Made by a program: the position numbers and the translations under genes. The notes under the pieces were generated by a model. It ran no database searches. It was not told the origin of the DNA and saw only the letters and a list, made by a program, of their open reading frames with translations. A stretch of DNA of 64,000 bases from Thelocarpon superellum (taxonomy: Eukaryota), in the NCBI GenBank assembly GCA_026025795.1, contig JAPEUG010000053.1:1-64000 (forward strand), written 5' to 3'. Below, one piece after another: positions 45,362 through 46,046 of the stretch; within the stretch, counting starts at the first letter, position 1; every line of letters begins with the position of its first letter.

Positions 45362-46046
45362 ATGTCTGCTGTGTTCCCTGAGCAGGTAGCTGCACCTAGC
45401 CCACCTCCTGTGTTGGATCAGAGCACCTGTTAACACTGCATCAAGTGGATTAGCCACAACCACAGCCATAGGTGCCATAAGCCTAATCTGTATGGGAAGT
45501 GTGATAGGTGCCAAACTGCTGGGCACCCCTGTCTCTTAGTACATTGATTGCTCTGCTACATAGCTGTACTGATTTGTTGACCAGATCCTGATGAAGTTTG
45601 TGGGATAGGTGAACACCATCTTCTAGCTGCAAGAGCAGTACATGAACTTGCTCCTTCATCCTCCTACTAACACCATTGTAGTGGAATCACAGCTAGAGAC
45701 CTATAGGTCTAGCCTGCTGCTCCACATCTCAAAGTTCTGTTCTACTGTCAAATTCAATGAGTGTGGATAGTGTGACAGCAGCACTCTTCTTGCTGCAACT
45801 GAGCATTTGAACTTCCTCCTGATGGAGATCCTGAACCAGCTGTGCTACTTGGTAGGTGTCTGTGTTGTCTCTGCTGCTTGCTGGGTGTTGCTCACATTGT
45901 GGCAGAATCGATTCTCTACAGTCTGCCTGTTTGGTCCTGATGAGGACCCTGACCTTCTAGACAAACCACTTGAGGGTGAGGCTGCTCCTCAAGTGTGTGG
46001 TTTCACAATTGGCAGAGTCAACCCTAGCACAAACCCCAGTTCCTGA
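45362..46046 (+). pseudogene. Antisense accessory gene inside the chromovirus, with a Cys6 motif and two putative introns
   Basis: ATG 45362, then C*HC-x11-C-x7-CDRC-x6-C. Introns 45539-45584 and 45852-45905. Stops are TAA/TAG, as expected from transitions. Confidence 0.6.

Follow-up and report, generated by a model that had tools for sequence, protein, structure and literature searches.

A plausible antisense, intron-bearing ORF in a dead chromovirus of Thelocarpon superellum, with a six-cysteine motif that most likely arose through CpG decay

What occupies the 1.5 kb that separate the end of pol from the 3' end of a chromovirus in Thelocarpon superellum? The question arises in the window, by which we mean the whole stretch of 64,000 nucleotides analysed here. 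A first-pass annotation had read this segment as a spliced accessory gene on the strand opposite gag-pol, with six cysteines arranged like a zinc cluster. From sequence comparisons, we find an antisense, intron-bearing ORF plausible and the apparent zinc cluster most likely to be a product of CpG decay; the original observation is confirmed in part.

The insertion and its copies

The window holds a complete, dead Ty3/gypsy chromovirus insertion on the minus strand at 44767-51783 (Table 1). A direct repeat of 284 nt (44766-45049 and 51526-51809, 89% identity) marks its two ends, the LTR termini read TGTGAGG...CACA in minus-strand sense (45023 to 44767 and 51783 to 51527), and a target-site duplication of 5 bp, GCAGT, is identical at both ends of the element. 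Loose ends of contigs from the sequencing runs, at 45023 and 44766, match the borders of the 3' LTR. The features expected of a chromovirus are found together, i.e., LTRs with a target-site duplication, a polypurine tract, the order reverse transcriptase-RNase H-integrase and a C-terminal chromodomain. The reverse transcriptase region matches Pfam RVT_1 (E 2.2e-27) and RT_RNaseH_2, and the integrase is represented solely by an ORF translation and a weak SH3_Tf2-1 match. The extra sequence of about 1.5 kb that was said to lie between the chromodomain and the polypurine tract is indeed there. We measure about 1.48 kb from the Chromo match (46670-46521) to the tract (45038-45028), and about 1.43 kb from the first stop of the pol frame past the chromodomain, near 46470. 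There is no second copy of this spacer elsewhere in the 64-kb window, and neither tandem repeats of note nor Rfam families were found.

Table 1. Positions of the element's features and of the candidate plus-strand exons and introns in the window
Feature	Position	Strand	Remarks
Target-site duplication, 3' side	44766-44762		GCAGT, directly past the 3' LTR
3' LTR	44767-45023	-	257 nt, TG...CA
Polypurine tract	45028-45038	-	AAGGAAGGGGG, 4 nt upstream of the 3' LTR
Candidate exon 1	45362-45538	+	ATG, 59 codons, TAA at 45431-45433, six TGY Cys codons
Cys codons of exon 1	45428, 45437, 45473, 45500, 45509, 45530	+	TGY
Candidate intron 1	45539-45584	+	46 nt, GTACAT...CTGAT...CAG; acceptor is the exon junction of P0004
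Candidate exon 2	45585-45851	+	89 codons; TAG at 45606, 45624, 45768; matches P0004 residues 128-216
Cys codons of exons 2-3	45738, 45762, 45771, 45843, 45924	+	All Arg in P0004, TGY from CGY
Candidate intron 2	45852-45905	+	54 nt, GTAGGT...CTCAC...CAG; 18-residue gap against P0004
Candidate exon 3, matched part	45906-45992	+	P0004 residues 217-245
Third intron-like stretch	45993-46054	+	GTGTGT...CTGAT...TAG; starts exactly where the P0004 match ends
Chromodomain, end of pol	46521-46670	-	Pfam Chromo, E 1.6e-06
Reverse transcriptase and start of RNase H	48525-49682	-	3 internal stops
5' LTR	51527-51783	-	Repeat pair
Target-site duplication, 5' side	51788-51784		GCAGT, directly ahead of the 5' LTR

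The ratio of observed to expected CpG drops from about 1.0 in the flanks to 0.03 within the element, where both TpG (1.51) and CpA (1.39) are in excess. Nearly all of its CpGs have been converted to TpG or CpA. Changes of the TGG>TAG type have also occurred, since the conserved tryptophans of the chromodomain now appear as TAG. Pol is interrupted by many stops, and the window copy is a pseudogene whatever the status of the ORF discussed below.

The CpG-free domain is larger than the element. It extends from about 43,750 to about 53,450 with sharp borders (0-2 CG per 400 nt, GC about 0.43-0.52), and overshoots the LTRs by about 1 kb and about 1.7 kb. These overshoots have no detectable similarity to the element, and could be an older repeat that hosts the insertion or the result of a spread of CpG-targeted mutation or methylation. 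The GC-rich flanks carry a (CCTCAT)n-type array at 56290-56451, a 30-nt tandem array at 4223-4552 (8 offset 120-nt matches) and a 36-42-nt tandem array at 22065-22285. All three probably belong to host genes with repetitive coding sequence.

For comparison with other copies, contigs of four sequencing runs (X1-X4) were mapped to the window. X1 covers the stretch best, with 1,715 contig pieces on 44700-46800 and transitions at 275 of the 284 differing places. The chromovirus family is high-copy, and each copy seen in the four runs is decayed as well. The spacer itself is multi-copy. Pieces from all four runs span it, and its word depth in X1 (1,660-9,960 over 45055-46545) is similar to that of the chromodomain bins, which indicates that the spacer is present in all or most copies. 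At least nine indels distinguish the copies, and of the nine listed one falls within the 531 nt of candidate exons; it is a 1-nt deletion seen in one low-depth contig per run in two runs, and none of those listed lies in exons 2-3. Candidate intron 1 has two 6-nt insertions in some copies.

Two further observations concern the LTRs. One contig per run in two moss-metagenome runs (X2 and X4) connects the LTR edge at 45023 to the chromodomain at 46699, skipping 1,675 nt (45024-46698) with 2 other letters between; this weak joint (side 27, minimum likeness 80) may represent a relative without the spacer. In addition, word depth in X1 is about 15,000-46,000 in the LTR bins (44771-45054) against about 1,700-10,000 in the internal ones (45055-46800), and loose ends are numerous at either LTR border, a pattern that points to an X1 genome with many solo LTRs or with other elements sharing the LTR.

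The plus-strand frame and its annotated match

Read on the plus strand from 45362, the window gives the very translation on which the gene had been proposed, with its one TAA and six cysteines. The first letter of this TAA, at 45431, is C (giving CAA) in 13 X1 contigs (depth 3549/4084) and in 20 of 20 covering contigs of the three other runs. The splicing proposal also stands as sequence. Excision of the 46 nt between the GT at 45539-45540 and the AG at 45583-45584 links the exon 1 frame to the frame from 45585, and the second proposed intron is a 54-nt GTAGGT...CAG stretch that equals the only gap in the protein alignment described below. From 45585, the frame has three TAG stops ahead of its terminal TGA at 46044-46046. 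It had been pointed out that all stops are one transition away from a sense codon. This is literally true, but it carries no information, since the genetic code makes it true of any stop codon.

When the translation of 45585-46292 (P0002, with X at stops) was searched among 5.8 billion proteins, a single match was returned, with an E-value of 1.4e-36. This is KAI9835367.1 ('MAG: hypothetical protein M1838_005320, partial [Thelocarpon superellum]'), a protein of 246 residues that we call P0004. It is the lone member of its protein cluster and is encoded on a contig of 6,905 nt. In the alignment, residues 128-245, which fall in the C-terminal 119 residues of P0004, pair with 45585-45851 and 45906-45992, and the gene model omits exactly 45852-45905. 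The window frame of exon 3 runs on past this matched part. The match starts at 45585, and the model joins its upstream exon exactly at the 3' end of candidate intron 1. The first three codons read ILM in the window and IPT in P0004, a difference for which CCG>CTG and ACG>ATG suffice. Identical codons number 85 of the 119 compared; another 28 can be put down to decay (C>T or G>A) on the window side, and 6 show some other change. The P0004 frame is open over all 119 codons in this sister copy, but an open frame of that length is not rare in GC-rich DNA, which counts against the ORF. The comparison is silent on selection, because both sequences are near-identical members of one repeat family.

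The N-terminal half of P0004 appears to have a different origin. Residues 11-75 correspond to the end of the Amidoligase_2 family in Pfam (E 1.3e-4), and the protein tracks six aligned amidoligase homologues to the motif 'ESEM', right at the junction, past which the homologues end or diverge and have no 119-residue tail. A search of 1.84 billion cluster representatives gave 218 matches, of which 150 are listed. The profile, of 263 positions, included the amidoligase columns of P0004, so that the listed matches are mostly amidoligases. For each of the 149 listed matches other than P0004, the best-matching stretch lies at profile positions up to 145, within the amidoligase part or close to the junction, and none of these 149, out of the 218, matches the transposon part as a whole. 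Region 125-246, searched among proteins of 135-431 residues, found P0004 itself only. Because the homologues have no tail and the listed profile matches are confined to the amidoligase part or the junction, P0004 is best read as a gene model that appears to splice the 3' end of a host amidoligase onto plus-strand exons of the transposon. Behind this model there could be an annotation error or a true exonisation of transposon sequence. It is an annotation that accepts these exons, the intron and the acceptor in an undecayed copy; it is a single partial model and not experimental evidence for a gene.

As a reading somewhat short of probable, we tentatively favor an antisense accessory ORF in the spacer that is specific to the family, now pseudogenised and of a kind already known, its coding capacity being predicted. 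The earlier claim of an antisense, intron-containing gene holds insofar as the segment is multi-copy and its plus strand is annotated as coding sequence in P0004, with the same intron and acceptor. It gains nothing from the openness of the window copy, and the zinc-cluster identity is unsupported.

It is also quite possible that the spacer codes for no protein and serves, for instance, as a long 3' untranslated or regulatory region of the element. The frame, the ATG and the GT-AG signals would then have arisen by chance, and the P0004 model would have overrun into transposon DNA. The longest plus-strand run without a stop in 45038-46470 is 91 codons, when dinucleotide shuffles have a mean of 94 and 977 of 2000 shuffles reach 91 codons. 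The openness of the window copy is thus not beyond chance, and runs permitting 1 or 3 stops are likewise unremarkable against shuffles on both strands. Pfam-A searches with hmmscan at E up to 10 found 0 families for the translations of exon 1 (P0001), of exon 2 onward (P0002) and of the minus frame (P0003), and a search for homologues of exon 1 among proteins of 32-104 residues found none. The transposon part of P0004 has no relative in the 150 listed matches from the 1.84 billion representatives or in two word-seeded searches, and the model has a chimeric look. An AF2 single-sequence model of P0004 places helices at 131-150, 161-191 and 196-217, a point in favor of the ORF, but its mean pLDDT is 41 and is low even over the genuine amidoligase part, which counts against the ORF. 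Structural look-alikes of residues 128-246 in the Atlas are generic helical bundles only (TM 0.45-0.59), and the Atlas feature search with the same residues gave no usable match.

Other evidence is harder to reconcile with a non-coding spacer. The stops of the window copy sit on hypermutable CGG arginine codons of a sister frame that is otherwise open. Two or three intron-like signals coincide exactly with the points where the P0004 model breaks, exons 2-3 have no frameshifting indel among those listed, and most copies retain the spacer. Strict intron-like patterns on the plus strand number 2 in the 1.45 kb of the spacer versus 0.2-0.4 per kb elsewhere, which favors the ORF; this contrast and the indel contrast involve small numbers, with P about 0.06-0.13 by a Poisson estimate. 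Exon 2 has a coding-like GC content at the three codon positions (0.44/0.28/0.65), also in favor of the ORF, although such values cannot tell the plus frame from its in-phase complement, since the pol control has GC1 equal to GC3.

We regard it as very improbable that the element captured (transduced) the segment from the 3' part of a host gene, with P0004 as the intact parent, i.e., an amidoligase with a helical C-terminal extension. P0004 does link the C-terminal region of Amidoligase_2 to the matching 119 residues. However, the six closest aligned homologues (6 of the 149 listed) are tail-less and end or diverge within about 15-90 residues of the conserved 'ESEL', and no listed amidoligase match spans the transposon part as a whole. 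The junction lies exactly at an AG acceptor of transposon sequence, the segment is high-copy, and the near-identity with decay discounted (113 of 119 codons) is as for two copies of one repeat family. Hardly credible, finally, is a true ORF on the minus (sense) strand, as an additional downstream ORF or a C-terminal extension of the pol frame (45956 down to 45483 and beyond) of which the plus frame would be the in-phase complement: this frame, the same as that of pol, spans both candidate introns unspliced and at 4 stops in 158 codons is about as open as the plus frame, which counts against the latter, but over the whole spacer the pol frame has about 22 stops per 500 codons versus 23 and 26 in the other minus frames, P0003 has no Pfam match, and the sole annotated model uses the plus strand.

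Cysteine codons and CpG decay

The favored reading, a decayed antisense accessory ORF, leaves the cysteines of exon 1 to be explained. These had been taken as the mark of a Zn2Cys6-like or other zinc-binding regulator. The Zn2Cys6 pattern is C-X2-C-X6-C-X5-12-C-X2-C-X6-8-C. Exon 1 has six cysteines within 35 residues, spaced C-X2-C-X11-C-X8-C-X2-C-X6-C. Thus, it resembles Zn_clus (PF00172, Gal4-type) in having six cysteines in a short N-terminal stretch and a second half of C-X2-C-X6-C, but its first half has X11 instead of X6, which puts the third cysteine 5 residues out of place, and neither Zn_clus nor any other Pfam family matches at E up to 10. In the Atlas feature search, the stop-free stretch of 35 residues scores 0.81, 0.77 and 0.77 for its first three matches. 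The third of these is the Zn(2)-C6 (Zn_clus) cluster, with 114 shared features and a score of 0.77 against a threshold of 0.9, on a scale where one third of shuffled proteins reach 0.8. In JGI metagenome contigs, a scan with a peptide pattern gave 596 pattern matches, none of them confirmed, and a transition-tolerant DNA pattern of 45428-45475 gave 0 matches.

The exons that can be checked against P0004 point to another origin of the cysteines. All five window cysteines of exons 2-3 align with arginine (CGY) in P0004, i.e., they are decayed arginine codons, which undermines the six cysteines as a metal motif. All three TAG stops of exon 2 align with arginine too, and CGG becomes TAG by transitions. 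The matching part of P0004 has 10 arginines, 0 cysteines and 0 tryptophans. Former CpGs account for 11 of the 23 checkable TG dinucleotides. Of the CA dinucleotides at codon positions 1-2, just 1 in 8 is a former CpG, so that the histidines are mostly genuine. Exon 1 itself has 6 cysteines, 6 histidines and 1 tryptophan in 59 codons, the look that would be expected of a decayed basic stretch rich in arginine, histidine and lysine. Since the cysteines and stops of the window copy are former arginine codons in the checkable exons, the six-cysteine motif of exon 1 is most likely a CpG-decay artefact of a putative basic N-terminus of this composition, and not a zinc cluster.

The decay also has a strand asymmetry. 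Among the CGN arginine codons of the checkable exons, five now read TGY and three TAG, but just one reads CAA. The plus strand is T-rich across the whole element (44766-51809, AT skew -0.14 to -0.21), and C>T therefore appears to be favored on this strand.

A real ORF with a genuine six-cysteine, Zn2Cys6-like DNA-binding N-terminus that regulates the element would account for the clustering of the cysteines, the second-half spacing and the third Atlas match. Moreover, T>C at the six cysteine codons is absent from the best-supported 40 of the 361 differences between copies, but the same is true of the five former arginine codons, so that this point is uninformative. At the rates seen in the checkable codons and TG dinucleotides, six independent ancestral TGY codons are estimated to be at most about 2% probable. 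Together with the X11 spacing, the Pfam result and the sub-threshold Atlas score, this makes such an N-terminus highly unlikely, and we consider the zinc-cluster reading unsupported and improbable.

This locus carries two cautions. CpG hypermutation in repeats converts CGY arginine codons to TGY cysteine codons, CAY histidine codons or stops, and decayed arginine-rich stretches can therefore mimic zinc-finger-like motifs of cysteine and histidine. In addition, host-gene and transposon sequence can be fused in a single public gene model.

The candidate product and known antisense genes

On the favored reading, the 1.4-kb spacer between pol and the polypurine tract would carry the remains of an accessory ORF antisense to gag-pol and split by short GT-AG introns. 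The checkable part of this ORF in the undecayed sister copy would encode an arginine-rich, cysteine-free polypeptide of about 90 residues, predicted to be helical, followed by a tail rich in proline, aspartate and glutamate; in the window copy, the CGN arginine codons of this ORF would have turned into cysteine codons and stops. We suggest that the ORF may be a real, expressed gene in intact copies, with exon 1 as a putative part of it. Transcription could start near the polypurine tract and 3' LTR, from an internal or 3'-LTR-proximal antisense promoter, and follow the plus strand into the element. The transcript would lose two or three short introns by splicing, and these would survive retrotransposition because they are antisense to the genomic RNA. 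The product may be a nuclear or nucleic-acid-binding regulator, in which the basic N-terminus could direct the protein to the nucleus or bind nucleic acids and the helical domain could serve protein contacts. Alternatively, the antisense RNA itself may feed a dsRNA-based control.

A bolder version goes further, and we hold it to be doubtful. Intact copies of a lichen- or moss-associated fungal chromovirus family would encode a spliced antisense protein with an Arg/His-rich basic N-terminus and a three-helix C-terminal domain. This protein would be a fungal counterpart to the antisense regulators of retroviruses, with no sequence relationship to brtn or the plant antisense ORFs, and its exons would have been spliced onto a T. 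superellum amidoligase.

Among retroviruses, HTLV-1 has a spliced antisense accessory gene, HBZ. The candidate resembles HBZ as an antisense gene at the 3' end, with introns that are compatible with replication through the sense-strand RNA and a possibly basic N-terminus. It differs in having no homology and no bZIP domain, and in coming from a fungal host, where it is known from sequence alone. An antisense promoter in the 3' LTR is described for HTLV (PMC7264820).

The fungal comparison, made by description only, is with another Ty3/gypsy element that has an additional antisense gene downstream of pol. Zhao et al. reportedly described this gene, brtn, in 2011 in Boty-like retrotransposons of Botrytis cinerea. 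Our protein searches with P0002 and P0004 returned no Botrytis protein, for the profile search among the matches listed. The accounts in PMC7264820 and PMC8365987 that concern brtn present it as an extra antisense gene of the Boty-like (BcGypsy1) elements, and the latter gives it as missing from the current B05.10 annotation.

In plants, the antisense ORFs between pol and the 3' LTR of LTR retrotransposons, termed aORF-3R, include those of maize Grande (gene23), rice RIRE2, Silene Retand and Phaseolus PvRetro13 (PMC7264820). Where these sources treat the plant antisense ORFs and brtn, the functions are given as unknown (PMC7264820, PMC8365987), and dsRNA-based control is discussed for the plant ones (PMC7264820). 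Our candidate has the location of an aORF-3R, lying between pol and the polypurine tract and 3' LTR on the strand opposite gag-pol. It shares with the plant ORFs this position and orientation, the presence in most copies of the family, the absence of similarity to known proteins and the proposal of a regulatory or nuclear role. No similarity to plant aORF-3R proteins appeared in the protein searches that were run, for the profile search among the matches listed. The plant ORFs belong to Ty3/gypsy elements of plant hosts, and some come with transcript or localisation data, whereas the candidate here is from a fungus, is split by short introns and is a prediction from DNA. If the ORF is real, it would be the second fungal example of the antisense accessory genes of LTR retrotransposons, this one intron-bearing, and would add to the antisense ORFs between pol and the 3' LTR one more member from a different fungal lineage.
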